From positions 25,123 through 89,122 of the forward strand of contig WRIW01000004.1 in assembly GCA_009782505.1 (NCBI GenBank): a DNA stretch of 64,000 bases, in the 5' to 3' direction. Numbering within the stretch: position 1 is the first letter of the stretch; each line of letters opens with the position of its first letter. Source of the stretch: Clostridiales bacterium. GTDB taxonomy: Bacteria; Bacillota; Peptococcia; DRI-13; UBA5745. This document shows, one piece after another, positions 9,478 through 27,607 of the stretch. The notes beneath the pieces were generated by a model. The model had not been told where the DNA came from and did no database searches. It was given only the letters and a program-made list of their open reading frames with translations. The position numbers were made by a program, and so were the translations under genes.

Positions 9478-9647
9478 TTTTTGCCCCTCCGCTTCTCATT
9501 TTATACCTAAAAGTAAATCATGAGTTATTCTAACACCGCGTATTTTTTTTGTAAAGAAACAGATGGTTCCGCGGATTCCCTCTTGCGTTTTGCCATTTGT
9601 AGAATTATGATGGAAGTCGATCGATCGCGACGCCGGGAGGGACTCAT

Positions 9648-10931
9648 ATGCTGGATGCGAGAAGAATTCGAACAGACGCCGGTATGGTTAAAAATAGCTT
9701 GCTGGACCGAAACGCCGATTCCGGGCTGGTAGACAAGTTCCTGGCCGCCGACGAGAAGCGGCGGAAGAACCTGGCTGTCAGCGAGGAGAAGAAGGGCCTG
9801 CGCAATAAAGCCAGCGCCAATGTCGCCCGGATGAAGAAGGCCGGCGAGGACGCCGCCGTCATCATGGAGCAGACCCGGGCTTTAGGGGACGAGATCAAGG
9901 TGCTGGACGACGAGCTTAGGGATATCGAAGAGGAGATACAGTTTATCCTTCTTCATATACCAAACGTCCCCCACGAGACTGTGCCCGTCGGTAAAGACGA
10001 GGGGGCCAACGAAGAGATACGCCGCTGGGGCGAGCCCCGGGAGCCCGGCTTCCTTGTGAAGCCCCACTGGGAAGCGGGCGAGGCTTTGGGCGTCCTGGAC
10101 TTTGAGCGGGCTTCCAAGGTCACCGGCGCCCGCTTCACTTTCTACCGCGGGCTTGGGGCAAGGCTGGAAAGGGCGCTTATTGCATTTATGTTGGACCTGC
10201 ATACGCTGAAGCATGGTTACGAGGAGCTCATCCCCCCCTTTATTGTCAATCAGCATAGTATGACCGGTACCGGCCAGCTTCCGAAGTTCGCGGAAGACAG
10301 CTACCGGTTGGAAGGTTCGGAGGGGTACTACCTCGTGCCTACCGCCGAGGTGCCCGTCACGAACTTCTACCGGGAGGAGATATTGGACGCCCAGCGGCTT
10401 CCGATCTATCACTGCGCGTATACGCCTTGCTTCCGTTCGGAGGCGGGCGCCGCCGGCAGGGACACCCGCGGCCTCATCCGCCAGCACCAGTTCAATAAGG
10501 TGGAGCTCGTCAAGTTTGCCCTGCCGGAGAATTCCTACGATGAGCTTGAGGCGCTCACTGCCAACGCGGAAGAGGTGCTAAAGCAGCTGGAGCTGCCATA
10601 CCGCGTCGTAACCTTGTCTACCGGCGACCTTGGGTTTTCCTCCGCCAAGACTTACGACCTGGAAGTCTGGCTGCCCAGCGCCGGTATGTACCGGGAGATA
10701 TCCTCCTGCTCCAACTTTGAGGATTATCAGGCGCGCAGGGCGAATATCCGCTTCCGCCGGGAGCCGAAGGCGAAGCCGGAGTTTGTCCATACGCTAAACG
10801 GCTCCGGGGTGGCCATCGGCCGCACGACCGCGGCTATACTGGAGAATTATCAGAACGCCGACGGGAGCGTGACCATCCCCGCGGCCCTCCGCCCGTATAT
10901 GGGCGGCATTGATACGATCCCGGCTATATAA
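9648..10931 (+). CDS. serS: Seryl-tRNA synthetase
   Basis: N-terminal coiled coil, TGQLPKF, PTAEVP, FRSEAG, EISSCSN, HTLNGSG. Confidence 0.98.
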
Positions 10932-11224: not shown

Positions 11225-11316
11225 GGAGGGATACCGAAGCGGTCATAACGGGGCGGACTTGAAATCCGTTAGGGGCCTCGTGTCCCACGTGGGTTCGAAT
11301 CCCACTCCCTCCGCCA
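11225..11316 (+). tRNA. tRNA-Ser (anticodon TGA)
   Basis: GGAGGGA.../...TCCCTCC-G-CCA acceptor stem; GCGGA-CTTGAAA-TCCGT anticodon arm; long variable arm; GGTTCGAATCC T-loop; encoded CCA. Confidence 0.97.
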
Positions 11317-21199: not shown

Positions 21200-21281
21200 T
21201 TTATAGCCTTATGAAAACTACAGCTAAAGCCGCGCCGCTTTGGGCTATTGGTCTAGCTTTACGAAGAATGGAGTGTATACG

Positions 21282-23174
21282 ATGAACTTTGGCGGATACA
21301 TGGGAAAAATCCTTTTCGTCGACCTGACGGATAAGACCACCCGGGAACAGGAGCTCGACGAGTCGACCTATCGCCGCTATATCGGCGGATACGGTCTGGG
21401 GGCGAGGATACTGTACGAGTTTCTCAAGCCAGGGATCGACCCTCTCGGCCCCGACAACATGATCGGCTTTGTGCCGGGGACCTTCACGGGGACGAAAGCT
21501 CACGCCGCGGGGCGCTTTCATGTAGTCGCCAAGTCGCCCCTTACCGGAGGCTGGGGGGATTCCAGCTGCGGCGGCAACTTCGGCCCCAGGCTGAAGGGCG
21601 CCGGCTACGACGGGGTATTCTTCACCGGCAGGGCGGAGAAGCCGGTATATGTCTACCTGGACGACGGGCGCGTGGAGTTTCACGACGCGGCGGACTTGTG
21701 GGGGAAAGACTCCGCCGACACGGAGGCGAGCCTCAGGGAAAAGCACGGGGGCAAATCCCTCGGCGTGATGTGCATCGGCCAGGCGGGGGAAAATCTGCTG
21801 CGCATCGCCTGCATCATCAATGACTTCGGCCGCGCGGCGGGGCGTATGGGCCTCGGCGCCGTCATGGGCTCGAAGAATCTGAAAGCCTTCGTCGCGTCGG
21901 GAGCGGGACAGGCTCGAATCATGGATCAGGAGGTCTATCAGGAGCAGCTGGACTATATGGTCCACAACATCACGAAAGAACGCACGCCCATGGCAAACCG
22001 GCTGAGCGCGACGGGCACGGCTACGGTATATGTACAGAATATATCGATCCAGGACTGCCCCGTCCAGAACTGGCGCTCCATCGGAGCCGAGAAGTATTCC
22101 TTAGATCAGGCGACGAAGATCGCCGGCCCGGCGTACGCGCCTTATGTCAAGCGGCCCTATGCCTGCGCCCAGTGCGCGGTGGCTTGCGGCGCTATCGTCG
22201 AGTTCACGGACAGCGAGGGGCGGACGCGGGAATCCCACCGGCCGGAGTATGAGACGGTGGGCGCCTTTGGGAGCCTGTGCCTCATCGACGATATACAGGC
22301 GGTGATGGAAGCCAATGAAGCTTGCAACCGTTATGGTATGGATACCATATCCACCGGCGGCACCATCGCTTTCGCCATGGAATGCTTTGAAAAAGGGCAA
22401 ATCACCCGCGAAGACGCGTTAGGCGTCGATCTGAGCTGGGGGAACAAGGACGCACTGGTCCCCATCATCGAGCAGATGGCTTTCCGCAGGGGGATAGGCG
22501 CGGTGCTGGCCGACGGATCCAGGCGCGCGGCTGCCGCCCTGGGCCGCGGCGCAGAGGAGTTCGCCATACAGGCGGGCGGTATGGAGCTGCCTATGCACGA
22601 CGCCCGCTGCTGGCCGGGTTTCGGCTACAGTTACGCCCTGGACCCCACGCCGGGCATCCACTGCAAAGGGCCGGTGGGCTTCATCGAGCATGGCTGGACA
22701 GACCGTCAGTTTGAGGAAACCCACAGCATGAGGCATTTAGCCGAGGACAAGTACAACTATGAAGGCAAAGGCGAGCCCCTCAAGCTGCTGAGCCATTGGT
22801 ATCATTTCTTCAACGGGACCGGCCTGTGCATCTTGGGCAAGTATTGTTACTACCGCTACCCAACCCTGGAGCTTCTCCGGGCCGTCACCGGCTGGAAGGA
22901 CTTCGACATGGAGGAAGCCCTCGCCGTGGGAGAGAGGGTCAATACCTTGCGCCAGCAATTCAACGTCAATGAAGGCATTACCTACGACGACTTTAAGCTT
23001 CCGGGGCGCGCCGCGGGTCTCCCGCCCCTGCACGCGGGGCCCACCGCCGGCGTTACCGTGGATATCGACAAAGTCCGGGACGACTACTATAAAGCGATGG
23101 ATTGGGACGCTTCCGGCAGGCCGTCCCGCAGGGCTATCGAAAGGCTGGGGCTGCAAGAGCTGATCAAAGCGTAA
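21282..23174 (+). CDS. Aldehyde:ferredoxin oxidoreductase family, copy 2
   Basis: KSPLTGGWGDSSCGG, GRMGLGAVMGSKNLKA, CAQCAVAC, PEYET, GMDTIS. Confidence 0.92.
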   Translation: MNFGGYMGKILFVDLTDKTTREQELDESTYRRYIGGYGLGARILYEFLKPGIDPLGPDNMIGFVPGTFTGTKAHAAGRFHVVAKSPLTGGWGDSSCGGNFGPRLKGAGYDGVFFTGRAEKPVYVYLDDGRVEFHDAADLWGKDSADTEASLREKHGGKSLGVMCIGQAGENLLRIACIINDFGRAAGRMGLGAVMGSKNLKAFVASGAGQARIMDQEVYQEQLDYMVHNITKERTPMANRLSATGTATVYVQNISIQDCPVQNWRSIGAEKYSLDQATKIAGPAYAPYVKRPYACAQCAVACGAIVEFTDSEGRTRESHRPEYETVGAFGSLCLIDDIQAVMEANEACNRYGMDTISTGGTIAFAMECFEKGQITREDALGVDLSWGNKDALVPIIEQMAFRRGIGAVLADGSRRAAAALGRGAEEFAIQAGGMELPMHDARCWPGFGYSYALDPTPGIHCKGPVGFIEHGWTDRQFEETHSMRHLAEDKYNYEGKGEPLKLLSHWYHFFNGTGLCILGKYCYYRYPTLELLRAVTGWKDFDMEEALAVGERVNTLRQQFNVNEGITYDDFKLPGRAAGLPPLHAGPTAGVTVDIDKVRDDYYKAMDWDASGRPSRRAIERLGLQELIKA

Positions 23175-23203
23175 GCAAACAGTGTAAGCTAAAGAGAAAG
23201 CAC

Positions 23204-23457
23204 AAGCGAACAACAGGCGTAATATAAAGCCAGCGCCACTGCTTGTCTGACTCCCTGGACAATATCTGCAAATCATCACGTCAATCATAGAATAAAGCCT
23301 ATCGGCTACGACACGACATCCTGTCGTGCTCCGCCTAATCAGACATCGTGTCTGATTTACGGCTTACCTGGTTGATTGCCGTGTGATTTAAGACGATATC
23401 GTCCAAAGTCGTCAAACAAGCGGTGGCGCTGGTCTGCGTTACGCCTGTTGTTCGCTT
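23204..23457 (-). repeat. Long-hairpin structured element (MITE/ncRNA-like), copy A
   Basis: Arms aagcgaacaacaggcgtaa/ttacgcctgttgttcgctt and ccagcgccactgcttgtctgac/gtcaaacaagcggtggcgctgg; two-hairpin core 23295-23365 matches copy B in architecture. Confidence 0.75.
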
Positions 23458-24875
23458 CTGCGCTTCCTGTTTACCGCGATGATCCACGCCACCGTCACGG
23501 CTATGCCTATGAGGCATATGCCCGACGCGATGAGGAAAGTATTGCGCATCCCGTACATGAACGCCGCTTCCTGGCCGCCCCCCGGCTCATAGCCGGTCAC
23601 GTGGTAGCCCAGAACCTTGCTCATCCCCCCGTAAAGCACGGCTGTGGTAAAGGCGACGCCCAGGGTCATGCCAATATTTCGAATGCACATGCTGGCGGAT
23701 CCGCCTATCCCCAGCTTATCCGGCGGGACATTTGACATGATGTGCGTGTTGTTTGGCGCGTTAAACAAGGCGTTGCCGAAGCTGATGACGCAATAGTACA
23801 TGATCATCACGATGACGGGGGAATTCACGGTCAGCGTAGCCATGAGCATCAATCCCAGGAAGTTCAATATCTGGCCGGCGAGGGACAATGCGTCGCCCCT
23901 GATCTTGTCGGTGAGTATCCCGCTGACCGGCGTGACAAGCAGGACAATGACCGGCGATACGGTCATGTACAGGCCGGCGAGGCCTACCGGCGTGCCCAGC
24001 ACGCCTTGCATGTAGAAGGGGATGATGATGTTGCCGAAGCCCATGGTAAACATCTGGATAAAAGCCGTCAACACATTTACGGAGAAGATTGGGTTCTTGA
24101 ATAGGCCAAGATCCAGCAGGGGCATGGCTTTTTTCCTCTGCATAGCAAAAAACGCGCTGAAGGTCACCAGTGACAAAGCCAGCCCGGAGAGGATAGTAGC
24201 GCTGGTGTAGCCGGCGGCATACCCCCCCTGCATAGAGTAAAGCAGGGATACTATGGCTACAGCGTAGAGCAGCGCCCCCGGGTAGTCCATGGTCTCCCTG
24301 CGCTCGGGGGCCTTCTCCTTAGGGAAGCAGCGTAAACCCAGCAGCAGGGCCGCCAGGGTGACGGGGGCCTTAAGCAGGAACATATACTGCCAGGGCAGAT
24401 AAGCGATGATCAAGCCGCCCAGGGTAGGCCCGGCAAGCAGGCCGATAGATACGGCGCCCCCGTATATGCCCATGGCGCGCCCCCGTTCGCTCTGAGGGAA
24501 GACCATGGTGATCAGGCCCTGGCTGTTTGCCATGGTGCAGCTTGTCCCGATGGCCTGCACGATACGGGCGATGACCAGCATGGAGAGGGAATTCGCCAAG
24601 CCGCCAAATACCGAACTCAAGGTATAGACGGCGACGCCGACCAGATAAAACTTCGTCTTGCCGACGATGTCCCCAAGCCTGCCGAAGAAAAGTATCAGTG
24701 TGGAAGTTGTGATCGAGTACGCGCTGACGATCCAGATGACAGCGCCGGAGGTCACCCCCAGATTCTGGCTTATCGTGGGCAACGCGATATTTAGCATGCT
24801 GCCGTCCAAGCCGTCCATGACGATTTTCATCACGATGACCGTCAATACCAACCATTTTCTTTTGTCGTTATCCAC
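23439..24875 (-). CDS. MFS DHA2 (14-TM) drug/H+ antiporter
   Basis: LDGSMLNIALP, GRLGDIVGK, GPTLGG, MDYPG, PLLDLGLF. Confidence 0.92.
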   Translation of the reverse strand: MDNDKRKWLVLTVIVMKIVMDGLDGSMLNIALPTISQNLGVTSGAVIWIVSAYSITTSTLILFFGRLGDIVGKTKFYLVGVAVYTLSSVFGGLANSLSMLVIARIVQAIGTSCTMANSQGLITMVFPQSERGRAMGIYGGAVSIGLLAGPTLGGLIIAYLPWQYMFLLKAPVTLAALLLGLRCFPKEKAPERRETMDYPGALLYAVAIVSLLYSMQGGYAAGYTSATILSGLALSLVTFSAFFAMQRKKAMPLLDLGLFKNPIFSVNVLTAFIQMFTMGFGNIIIPFYMQGVLGTPVGLAGLYMTVSPVIVLLVTPVSGILTDKIRGDALSLAGQILNFLGLMLMATLTVNSPVIVMIMYYCVISFGNALFNAPNNTHIMSNVPPDKLGIGGSASMCIRNIGMTLGVAFTTAVLYGGMSKVLGYHVTGYEPGGGQEAAFMYGMRNTFLIASGICLIGIAVTVAWIIAVNRKRRSEQQA

Positions 24876-24929
24876 TATTTCGTCCTTTTGATTTATTTGC
24901 GCCTTTTCCCGGGCGTCGCGGGCGCGGGT

Positions 24930-25325
24930 TTACAGATCGACCGCCGTTGGCTCCTTGCCGCCCTCGGTGACCATGCAGGTCGCGTTCTTCAGATAGAACA
25001 TGGCGACTTCGCCGGGCTTGTCCTTATATATCTCGCCAATCCGCGGATTGTTTTCAAACAGATATTTCTTTACCTCTTCGCTTTCGTCCGGTACCGCTTC
25101 GCCTACGATCCTGATCCAGTCCATGTTCTGCTTAATGGCCGCGAGGGAAACTTTCGGATTGCTTATCATCTGCTTGTACACATTCTTCGACCTTCCCATG
25201 CTGAAGTAGAACCGGCCGTTATACTCCATGTTTGAGCCGAAAGGCCGGAGCTGGGGCTGACCGTCGTCCGACGTGGCGATGAAATACACGCCCGCCTCTT
25301 TCAGAAAATCTACGCCTTTACCCAT
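24930..25325 (-). CDS. Pyridoxamine 5'-phosphate oxidase-like (NimC/NimA-like) FMN-binding protein
   Basis: YFIATSDDGQPQLRPF...KNVYKQMISNPKV...WIRI; GGAGG RBS before MGKG. Confidence 0.85.
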   Translation of the reverse strand: MGKGVDFLKEAGVYFIATSDDGQPQLRPFGSNMEYNGRFYFSMGRSKNVYKQMISNPKVSLAAIKQNMDWIRIVGEAVPDESEEVKKYLFENNPRIGEIYKDKPGEVAMFYLKNATCMVTEGGKEPTAVDL

Positions 25326-25467
25326 AATGCGCGCCTCCTTAATTTTTTTATCAACGCTATGTATTATACTTCTTTTTCTTGCCCGGCACAATTAATATGC
25401 TATACTTATAATATAGAACGTCGCGCCCGGCGCGGTACGTGCAATACATAAATCATGGGAGGACGAA

Positions 25468-26592
25468 TTGACGATGAACGCGAAACCCGCGGTTAAGCCG
25501 CAATACCCCAATTTTTCTTCAGGCCCCTGCGCGAAGATCCCCGGCTTCGATCTGGCGGATTTGGAATCGGCTCCCCTGGGAAGATCCCACAGAAGCGCCC
25601 TTGGCAAAGGGAAACTGGCGGAATCCATCGAAAGGACCAAAGCGTTGCTGGAGATACCGGAAGACTATCTTGTGGGAATCGTTCCGGCTTCAGATACCGG
25701 CGCCATTGAGATGGCTATGTGGAATCTGCTGGGCGAGAGAGGGGTCGACGTCGTCTGGTTTGAGTCCTTCGGGAAGTTTTGGGCCAACGATATCGTCGAC
25801 CAGCTGCGTTTAAAGGATGTGAATGTCCTGTCCGCCGGATACGGCGAGCTGCCCGATCTGTCGATGATCGATTTTGACCGCGACGTAGTCTTTACCTGGA
25901 ACGGCACCACCAGCGGCGTAAAAGTACCGAACGGGGACTTTATCCCGGCGGACAGGCGGGGGCTGACCATCTGCGACGCTACCTCCGCCGTCTTTGCTAT
26001 GGAGATCGACTGGAGCAAGCTGGACGTCGCCACATTTTCCTGGCAGAAGGTACTGGGCGGTGAAGCGGCCCACGGCATGCTCGTGCTGTCGCCCAGAGCT
26101 GTGGAACGCGTTAACGCCTACACGCCCCCCTGGCCGATTCCCAGGATATTTCAGCTGAAAAGCAAAGGTAAATTCGCCCTGGAGCTCTTTGAAGGCTCCA
26201 CCATCAACACACCCTCCATGTTATGTAACGAGGACTACCTGAACGCTCTGGACTGGGCGGAATCCGTCGGCGGGTTGAAGAAGCTTCGGCAGATCAGCGC
26301 CGATAATTTAAAAGCCTTCGAAAGGTTCGTCGGCGGGCGCGAATGGATACGTTTTCTGGCCTCTGATCCGCGGACCGTATCGAATACAAGCGTTTGCCTG
26401 GCTCTCGATTTACCCGAGGAAAAGATCAAGAAGATCGTCAGCCTGCTGGAAGAAGAAGGAGCGGCTTATGACGTCGCCCCTTACCGCGACGCTCCGCCGG
26501 GGCTGCGCTTCTGGTGCGGCTCCACCGTACAGACAAAGGATGTGGAAATCGCGCTGGAGTGGCTGGACTGGGCCTACCACGAGGTGAAGTAA
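25468..26592 (+). CDS. serC: Phosphoserine aminotransferase (Methanosarcina-type)
   Basis: [52 protein letters not shown]. Confidence 0.93.
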
Positions 26593-26604
26593 GACCGAAA
26601 TGCT

Positions 26605-26833
26605 TGCCCAAGCAAGGTAGCCTGTGTCTGGCAAGACGACATTGCGTCGAAGCAATCAAGACACGAGATAAGCGTTTAGACGAAGCCATAAATAAATCAG
26701 GACGATTTATTAGGCGAGGTCGTCACGATGACGACTCGAAGCCGGTATGGCTGAGTATATCACGGCGACAAGGTGTTTCTTAGTATAATATAGCAGTCGT
26801 CGGTCAGACACAGGCTGCCTTGGGTCATGGGCA
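26605..26833 (+). repeat. Long-hairpin structured element (MITE/ncRNA-like), copy B
   Basis: Arms caaggtagcctgtgtctggc/gtcagacacaggctgccttg (mismatches are G.U on +); core 26683-26752. Confidence 0.75.
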
Positions 26834-26854
26834 TAGCTTAGTTAGGAGTGTTCA

Positions 26855-27607
26855 ATGTTCATTAAATTTATCTGCTGCGACGTCTTTGCCCGTATTGCCT
26901 GCGAGCTCGTTTCCCGATCCCCCCATATCGTAGACCTGGAGTTTATCCCCATGCTGGCCCACCAGGAGCCGAAAAAGCTAAACCGCCTGATCCAGGAGAA
27001 GATCGACCAAAGCCTGAACGATTCCGGGCGTAAGTACGACGCGGTCATCCTGGGCTTCGGCTTGTGCGGCAATTCCGTCGTCGGCCTCTCCTGCGCCGTG
27101 CCCCTGGTCATCCCCCGGGCCCATGACTGCTGCACCATCCATATGGGCAGCAAGGAGGGCTTCATCGCCTCCTTCGGAAATCAGCTGAGCGCCCGCTGGT
27201 GCTCCACCGGGTACTACGAGCGGGCCCATGTGCCGAATAGCGGCTACTTCGGCCCAGATCAGCTGGAAAACTATAAGACTTCAGTGGAATACATGAAACT
27301 CGTGGATCAGTACGGCGAGGAAGACGCGGATTTCATATGGGAAACCATGCACCCGAAAATCGAAACCAACGAAGCCTACTACATCAGGATCGAGGGATAC
27401 GAGCACTCGGGCGCCTATGAAGGCTTTCAGTCGAAGATCGCAGAGGCGGGCAAAGAGCTCATCACCGTCCGCGGGGATACGGCCATGCTGAAGGCGCTGG
27501 TCGATGGCGAATGGGACGAGGCCGTTTTCCTCACCGTCCCCCCCGGGAAGAAGATCGAAGGCGTATATGATATGGACCAGGTCGTCAAGTATGCCGACGG
27601 GGAATGA
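26855..27607 (+). CDS. DUF1638 domain protein
   Basis: ICCDVFAR...H...YDAVILGFGLCGN...PRAHDCC motif. Confidence 0.85.
   Translation: MFIKFICCDVFARIACELVSRSPHIVDLEFIPMLAHQEPKKLNRLIQEKIDQSLNDSGRKYDAVILGFGLCGNSVVGLSCAVPLVIPRAHDCCTIHMGSKEGFIASFGNQLSARWCSTGYYERAHVPNSGYFGPDQLENYKTSVEYMKLVDQYGEEDADFIWETMHPKIETNEAYYIRIEGYEHSGAYEGFQSKIAEAGKELITVRGDTAMLKALVDGEWDEAVFLTVPPGKKIEGVYDMDQVVKYADGE

Follow-up and report, generated by a model that had tools for sequence, protein, structure and literature searches.

What are the two structured elements, copy A and copy B, that sit at the 3' ends of two genes in a 64,000-nt stretch of a Clostridiales bacterium genome (assembly GCA_009782505.1, contig WRIW01000004.1, positions 25,123 to 89,122 of the forward strand; hereafter the window)? 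An initial annotation, made from the letters alone, saw in them a dispersed structured element of no named family, and offered as readings a non-autonomous miniature inverted-repeat transposable element (MITE), a REPIN variant, an RNA of the 3' untranslated region (UTR) or a protein-binding scaffold. We found that A and B are members of a catalogued RNA motif, TwoAYGGAY (Rfam RF01731), and not a novel element. The explanation that we prefer as a whole, to which we assign a probability of about 0.7, is that both are old, diverged copies of a gene-less, fold-back, MITE-like DNA family with TwoAYGGAY at its tip, and that the rod may also act as RNA.

Copies A and B are members of the TwoAYGGAY family

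The whole window was scanned with Rfam at gathering thresholds (43 bits for RF01731), and two matches were returned, copy A (RF01731, 44.1 bits) and a tRNA. Low-scoring matches to K_chan_RES, IRES_Bip, CC0196 and antisense Bacillaceae-1 lay far below their cut-offs and were discarded. Copy B was unreported by RF01731 even at E <= 10, both in the window and in the genome scan. The parts of the two copies are as follows.

23200..23461, minus strand: copy A, whole rod-like hairpin of 262 nt (fold and sequence)
23254..23407, minus strand: copy A, match to RF01731 TwoAYGGAY, model positions 1-168 (44.1 bits, gathering score 43)
23283..23378, minus strand: copy A core, branching at a three-way junction into two hairpins (own model R1, 88 bits)
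23365 to 23296, minus strand: copy A core letters (read in the window)
23337..23357, minus strand: copy A hairpin 1, loop ACGAU, no GGA (sequence, fold, loop tally)
23311..23329, minus strand: copy A hairpin 2, loop AGGAU, GGA present (sequence, fold, loop tally)
26602..26837, plus strand: copy B, whole rod-like hairpin of 236 nt (fold and sequence)
26669..26764, plus strand: copy B core (own model R1, 69.4 bits; unreported by RF01731 at E <= 10)
26683-26752, plus strand: copy B core letters (read in the window)
26691..26711, plus strand: copy B hairpin 1, loop AGGAC, GGA present (sequence, fold)
26719..26735, plus strand: copy B hairpin 2, loop ACGAU, no GGA (sequence, fold)

Our own covariance model, R1, was built from a 12-core alignment (A2; eight cores from this genome and four from relatives). 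In the window genome, which comprises 1.98 Mb in 73 contigs and is 83% complete, R1 gave 51 matches at E <= 0.01, 48 of them at E <= 1.9e-12, or about one copy per 41 kb, and it scored copy A at 88 bits and copy B at 69.4 bits. RF01731 gave 34 matches at E <= 10 in the same genome, 21 of them above the cut-off, and left copy B and 13 other copies unreported. The tie of copy B to the family comes only from this genome's own copies, through R1 and through nhmmer (E 3.4e-29); judged by its sequence, copy B is a diverged TwoAYGGAY member that the Rfam model misses. The view that the element had no named family does not survive these searches, because copy A passes the RF01731 gathering score, as do 21 copies of the genome. 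A weak R1 match at window positions 9605-9701 was rejected as noise, since it folds no better than shuffles (z 0.03).

Both cores cap far longer imperfect hairpins, just as the initial annotation had placed the cores inside long imperfect arms. In the predicted folds A and B are rods of ~240-260 nt, each tipped by two short hairpins. The minimum free energy was -150.9 kcal/mol for copy A against -77.3 +/- 5.3 in 200 dinucleotide shuffles (z -13.99) and -105 against -69.1 +/- 4.8 for copy B (z -7.52), so that both copies beat the shuffled controls that had been proposed as a test. The core letters quoted earlier were found in the window for both copies; the end of the copy A core is 23296, and not 23295 as had been given.

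Like TwoAYGGAY, A and B have a long basal stem that carries two hairpins side by side, with C-G-closed loops of the A-Y-G-G-A-Y kind, and both folds and covariation place two sequential hairpins on one basal stem in each copy. The motif is also known from Clostridia and in many copies per genome. However, neither loop of A (ACGAU and AGGAU) or of B (AGGAC and ACGAU) is the 6-nt AYGGAY, both copies carrying 5-nt variants; AUGGAY and ACGGAY occur in other copies of the genome. As far as the available text of each source goes, the motif is catalogued as a table entry (Weinberg et al. 2010, PMC2864571), a CsrA-site proposal for it was printed in 2014/15 (PMC4333381), and a preprint (bioRxiv 10.64898/2026.09.22.753630) describes Bacillota copies with an elongated basal stem, as in this genome, Pseudomonas copies that adjoin REP arrays, and copy-number variation that it reads as "mobile-element-like expansion". 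The CsrA-site idea and the mobile-element idea are thus both already in print.

The stems of the core covary

RNAalifold predicted 17 pairs in the 12-core alignment, and 14 of them show changes on both sides that keep the pairing. When 67 cores (62 distinct) from the window genome and eight relatives were aligned, 20 of the 23 pairs of the three-helix structure had changes on both sides. Standard pairs filled 89.2% of the cells in this alignment against 63.5% in shuffles, with 0 of 500 shuffles reaching 89.2%, and 28-39% of the cells were paired when the partners were slid by 1-3 columns; the alignment had been fitted to the model and so leans towards the structure, and its copies are related to one another, so that the pairing figures express consistency and not probability. 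The early claim that the stems differ and yet pair was borne out by both alignments and, with 48 strong R1 copies in the genome, so was the description of a dispersed structured element.

The largest subfamily was inserted as DNA

Three groups of copies can be told apart in the window genome. The largest subfamily, sf1, is represented by 28 full-length copies of ~256 bp, with about 90% similarity from end to end, the copy-A type (sf2) has 6 copies, and the copy-B type has about ten. The terminal sequences of sf1 are GTTACAG...CTGTAAC (fuller ends GTTACAGTTCAGG...CCTGAACTGTAAC). With the ends of sf1 taken from its profile, the 8 bases flanking the left end were compared with those flanking the right. 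The two flanks agreed at >=6 of 8 positions in 10 of the 28 copies, at >=7 in 8 copies and at all 8 in 4 copies, the sf1 copies not being independent of each other; among 756 mismatched left/right flank pairs, used as a null, 0.66% reached >=6/8 and none reached >=7/8. Several of the flanks counted as misses show the same repeat shifted by 2-3 bases. Because the duplicated octamers vary from copy to copy, they must come from the target and not from the element, and the 8-bp flank duplications together with the fixed ends show that sf1 was inserted as DNA at a staggered 8-bp cut. sf1 is transposed DNA, and it has the fixed-length target-site duplication of a MITE (4 perfect of 28). No target duplication is described for TwoAYGGAY in the passages on the family that were consulted.

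The copy number is patchy among relatives, and we counted this for mobility. Among 41 same-class genomes RF01731 was found in 21, with 0-31 matches in each genome, and a single match was found in each of three genomes of the same genus that measure 3.7-3.8 Mb. In one near-complete relative (G022) the TwoAYGGAY unit also stands in head-to-tail arrays of 99-100% identical copies.

G022, L064 344-1292: tandem array, 309 nt x 3.1, 99% identity
G022, L063 331-788: tandem array, 219 nt x 2.1, 100% identity

In four further members of sf1, each at a different place in the window genome (G000), the hairpin 2 loop holds a shared insert of ~50 nt.

G000:C2:81337-81486: sf1 copy with ~50-nt insert
G000:C40:13901-14049: sf1 copy with ~50-nt insert
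G000:C23:10696-10844: sf1 copy with ~50-nt insert
G000:C1:52266-52414: sf1 copy with ~50-nt insert

In this lineage the hairpin 2 loop is replaced by the ~50 nt, so that it spread to at least four places with the loop destroyed. There are also 19 partial sf1 loci in the genome that keep the outer complementary arms and have lost the tip wholly or partly (for example C3:97252-97314, C2:37991-38064 and C28:7540-7656). We considered these arm-only derivatives as proof of a dispensable tip and rejected them, each of the 19 loci being a different deletion and none being amplified.

The tip is conserved and the ends are variable

The nearest relative of copy A, on another contig, shares 88% identity with it, confined to the inner 178 nt. 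Beyond this inner part the resemblance between copies dwindles within about 20 nt, and each copy's own arms stay complementary. The arms of A and B are likewise complementary and copy-specific, without a common terminal word; sf1 has the GTTACAGTTCAGG...CCTGAACTGTAAC inverted ends. The arm words TGTYTGRC/GTCAGACA that had been pointed out earlier are indeed present in A and B; they are no family feature, being common only to the nearest relatives of each copy (e.g., C10:19587 for B). The combination of a conserved tip with variable ends is the one real oddity of the family.

At all 16 non-sf1 copies, A and B included, no convincing target duplication was found with automatic hairpin limits, which are wrong for some copies, including B. 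A DNA search of the two loci against 40 relatives for empty sites gave only gene pieces of 66-76% identity on other contigs without synteny. Identity to relatives of serC, the gene upstream of copy B, did not exceed 72% in genome_contigs or 71% in metagenome_contigs, and these searches yielded no orthologous filled or empty site for comparison.

One strand is favoured for folding

Comparison of the two strands gave the named one the more stable fold in 42 of 44 copies, with a mean advantage of 15.6 kcal/mol, and over the 44 copies this strand forms 309 G.U pairs against 141 on the complement. The arms of the 16 non-sf1 copies differ in sequence between copies, and in these arms alone there were 80 G.U and 47 A.C oppositions (binomial p 0.004), A.C being a would-be G.U on the other strand; G.U exceeded A.C in ten copies and the reverse was seen in none. 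This strand bias and the GGA loop that is always kept (see below) suggest that RNA or one DNA strand, and not duplex DNA only, is under selection. By crude open reading frame calls, the 44 copies lie 16 in sense and 5 in antisense between tandem genes, 16 between convergent genes and 6 between divergent genes.

Most copies in this genome carry a single GGA loop

The loops were tallied in 42 copies of the window genome (alignment A3). One GGA loop and one CGA loop (ACGAY) were present in 35, two GGA loops in 7 and two CGA loops in none, and A and B have one GGA loop each. This genome thus differs from TwoAYGGAY in that the second loop is usually a 5-nt ACGAY without GGA; among 25 copies from eight relatives, 24 have GGA in both loops. 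The suggestion that the AGGA loops resemble CsrA sites was upheld. A CsrA gene is present in the window genome at G000:C7:10665-10835, and CsrA was found in 29 of the 41 genomes.

Weighing the explanations

Of the readings offered initially, the non-autonomous MITE-type element proved the best, on the 8-bp duplications, the 48 copies and the covariation. TwoAYGGAY rods resemble bacterial MITEs such as Correia, ERIC, RUP and bcr1 in being gene-less and 100-300 bp long, in occurring in many intergenic copies, in the long hairpin predicted for their RNA and, for sf1, in having terminal inverted repeats and a fixed-length target duplication; those MITEs are co-transcribed with their neighbours, as A and B would be. 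For sf1, insertion at a staggered 8-bp cut implies a trans-acting enzyme, and A and B probably arrived by the same route and have since lost recognisable ends and duplications. As A and B lie right behind a co-oriented gene, they would be transcribed with it, A as a 3' UTR and B as an intercistronic spacer. The RNA is predicted to form a ~100-bp rod that exposes two loops of 5-6 nt, one of them with GGA. By analogy with REP/BIME hairpins, such a rod would most likely shield the upstream message from 3' exonucleases, and the GGA loop may offer a putative site for CsrA or another loop-binding protein.

Several observations weigh against this explanation. No flank duplication was found at A or B, where 8-mers near the hairpin base agree at no more than 4 and 5 of 8 positions, respectively, and the outer arms of both are not alignable to other copies; the mobility of A and B is therefore inferred from the family. 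The sf1 copies that carry the duplications are kin, as said above. Rods in other genomes have different end sequences and keep the core, the reverse of an ordinary MITE, in that TwoAYGGAY keeps its interior, not its ends, across genomes and phyla. Rods also differ from bacterial MITEs in that no parent insertion sequence was found: no sf1 end pair lies 1-3 kb apart in the right orientation, and none encloses a gene. The assembled contigs of the window genome gave no match to ISAs1, IS6, PF01609 (IS4/IS5), IS66, ISL3, IS256, IS1595, rve or Y1_Tnp (PF01797, the Y1/HUH transposase), so the linked transposase or HUH nuclease that had been suggested as a check did not turn up among these nine families, and ISAs1 transposase was also lacking in four copy-rich relatives. 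These negatives come from an 83% complete assembly, from which insertion sequences and repeats are often lost, and are absence of evidence only. The gene contexts come from the crude calls mentioned above, and the G.U bias could stem from transcription-linked C-to-T mutation, most copies being co-oriented with genes. As for a role with CsrA, one GGA loop and not two is usual here, CsrA was found in 17 of 21 genomes with RF01731 and in 12 of 20 without the motif, and no match to it turned up in two genomes that carry 12 and 7 copies and are 94% and 92% complete.

If the elements were instead regulatory RNAs or 3'-UTR-derived small RNAs that sequester CsrA, a sponge of the CsrB/RsmZ kind, the copy number would reflect selection on dosage and mobility would be incidental. 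The loop words CAGGAUG/CAGGACG and CAUGGAYG/CACGGAYG fit the CsrA-site match in the printed proposal, as far as its available part goes (PMC4333381), and none of the 42 copies lacks a GGA loop. Like the sponges CsrB/CsrC/RsmX/Y/Z, the copies present GGA hairpin loops of the CAGGAUG kind in a genome that encodes CsrA, and the biased folding strand would suit an RNA. Known CsrA sponges carry many sites, however, whereas 35 of the 42 copies have a single GGA loop with ACGAY as the other, and the two relatives with 12 and 7 copies gave no CsrA match. The copies also differ from the sponges in being dispersed as a mobile repeat within transcription units, and a simple consensus scan of the right strand found no promoter-like site before A or B. 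Finally, the target duplications show that insertion, not gene duplication, made the copies, and we consider a sponge unlikely.

A REP/REPIN-type origin, in which palindromic repeats are moved as single-stranded DNA by a RAYT (HUH Y1) transposase, would account for the long palindromic form, the many intergenic copies just past genes and the biased folding strand that a single-strand intermediate leads one to expect, and Pseudomonas copies of the family adjoin REP arrays according to the available part of the preprint (bioRxiv 10.64898/2026.09.22.753630). The elements are about ten times the length of a REP, though, with a branched tip, and the assembled contigs of the 83% complete genome yielded no Y1_Tnp gene. 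sf1, a young subfamily, has 8-bp target duplications, and to our knowledge HUH Y1 transposition (IS200/IS605, RAYT) makes none. A REPIN variant is thus not favoured and seems very improbable, and what REP, BIME and REPIN sequences share with these rods is that they are palindromic extragenic repeats at gene ends, whose role as 3' stabilisers of mRNA is the model for the inferred RNA effect. If the rod spread via an RNA copy, by retro-mobilisation of the structured transcript, conservation of the RNA fold rather than of the ends would be accounted for; the core is kept across genomes while termini differ, the G.U pairs are strand-biased and no DNA transposase was found. Against it, the assembled contigs contain no match to the reverse transcriptase RVT_1, the elements lack a 3' tail, A-rich or otherwise, and precise, symmetric ends with a duplication of constant 8-bp length fit cut-and-paste or copy-paste DNA transposition better than target-primed reverse transcription, so that we find this route hardly credible.

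A more speculative thought, which we hold to be doubtful, is that the mobilising machinery lies outside the common transposase families and recognises the branched TwoAYGGAY tip on one folded strand, not the ends. This would explain why the tip is conserved across phyla while termini differ by genome, why the tip, with one GGA loop or more, is present in all amplified lineages, why one strand is favoured for folding, and why a genome with 48 copies lacks matches to the nine transposase families and to reverse transcriptase.

TwoAYGGAY is a widespread RNA motif for which CsrA-sponge and mobile-element ideas were already in print. The modest addition made here is that clean 8-bp duplications and fixed ends in a Bacillota lineage put DNA transposition, and more than a "mobile-element-like expansion", behind the copy number. 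The variant with one GGA and one ACGAY loop weakens the picture of two CsrA sites in this organism, and the strand bias keeps an RNA or single-strand role open. In annotation, such rods behind genes are better labelled TwoAYGGAY repeats than gene-specific 3' regulatory RNAs.

Neighbouring genes

Both copies lie in sense orientation at gene 3' ends, as the initial annotation had it, A behind a gene that Pfam assigns to MFS_1 and B behind one that NCBIfam assigns to the serC_2 type.

21240..23174, plus strand: aldehyde ferredoxin oxidoreductase gene, convergent with the MFS gene (Pfam AFOR_N, AFOR_C)
23439..24875, minus strand: MFS transporter gene, upstream of copy A and co-oriented (Pfam MFS_1, E 2.4e-54)
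25468..26592, plus strand: phosphoserine transaminase gene (serC_2 type), upstream of copy B and co-oriented (NCBIfam NF002841, 609 bits; TIGR01365, 588 bits)
26855..27607, plus strand: DUF1638 gene, directly downstream of copy B and co-oriented (Pfam PF07796)
11225-11313: tRNA gene, 89 nt, the sole other Rfam match in the window at gathering thresholds

The end of the MFS gene (23439-23461), with its last 7 codons and stop codon, lies within the 5' arm of copy A, and the aldehyde ferredoxin oxidoreductase stop is 26 nt from the 3' end of copy A. We considered whether the outer stem of copy A came from an inverted copy of the MFS gene 3' end, and the observations point both ways: homologues and paralogues of the MFS protein (6/6) end in basic tails of 8-13 residues resembling the tail at copy A, which fits a native tail, and the 262-nt length of copy A is ordinary for the family, which fits a tail supplied by the element. 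Copy B occupies the gap between serC_2 and the DUF1638 gene, beginning 10 nt past the serC stop and ending 6 nt ahead of the next AGGAG. The nearest relatives of the serC_2-type transaminase (25468-26592), at <=72% identity, are in Syntrophomonadaceae-type, Mahellales and other Bacillota assemblies and in Proteobacteria, and no near-identical copy of the gene was found in either public collection (genome_contigs, metagenome_contigs).

A second palindromic repeat

The genome has a second dispersed palindromic repeat with the half-site AGAACCGTCCCCWCTGTG, of which there are 33 half-sites genome-wide, 13 inverted pairs being 42-52 nt apart and often just past genes.

G000:C23:7576-7645 (L038): AGAACCGTCCCCWCTGTG repeat, just after an MFS paralogue
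Window, about 5705 and 63444: further examples of the AGAACCGTCCCCWCTGTG repeat

With two such abundant repeat families, the 1.98 Mb of assembled sequence showed neither a transposase of the nine families nor RVT_1, which may only reflect the assembly. Solo AGAACCGTCCCCWCTGTG halves abut sf1 copies at C15:15284 and C43:8542, and the sf1 target duplication overlaps the half-site there.

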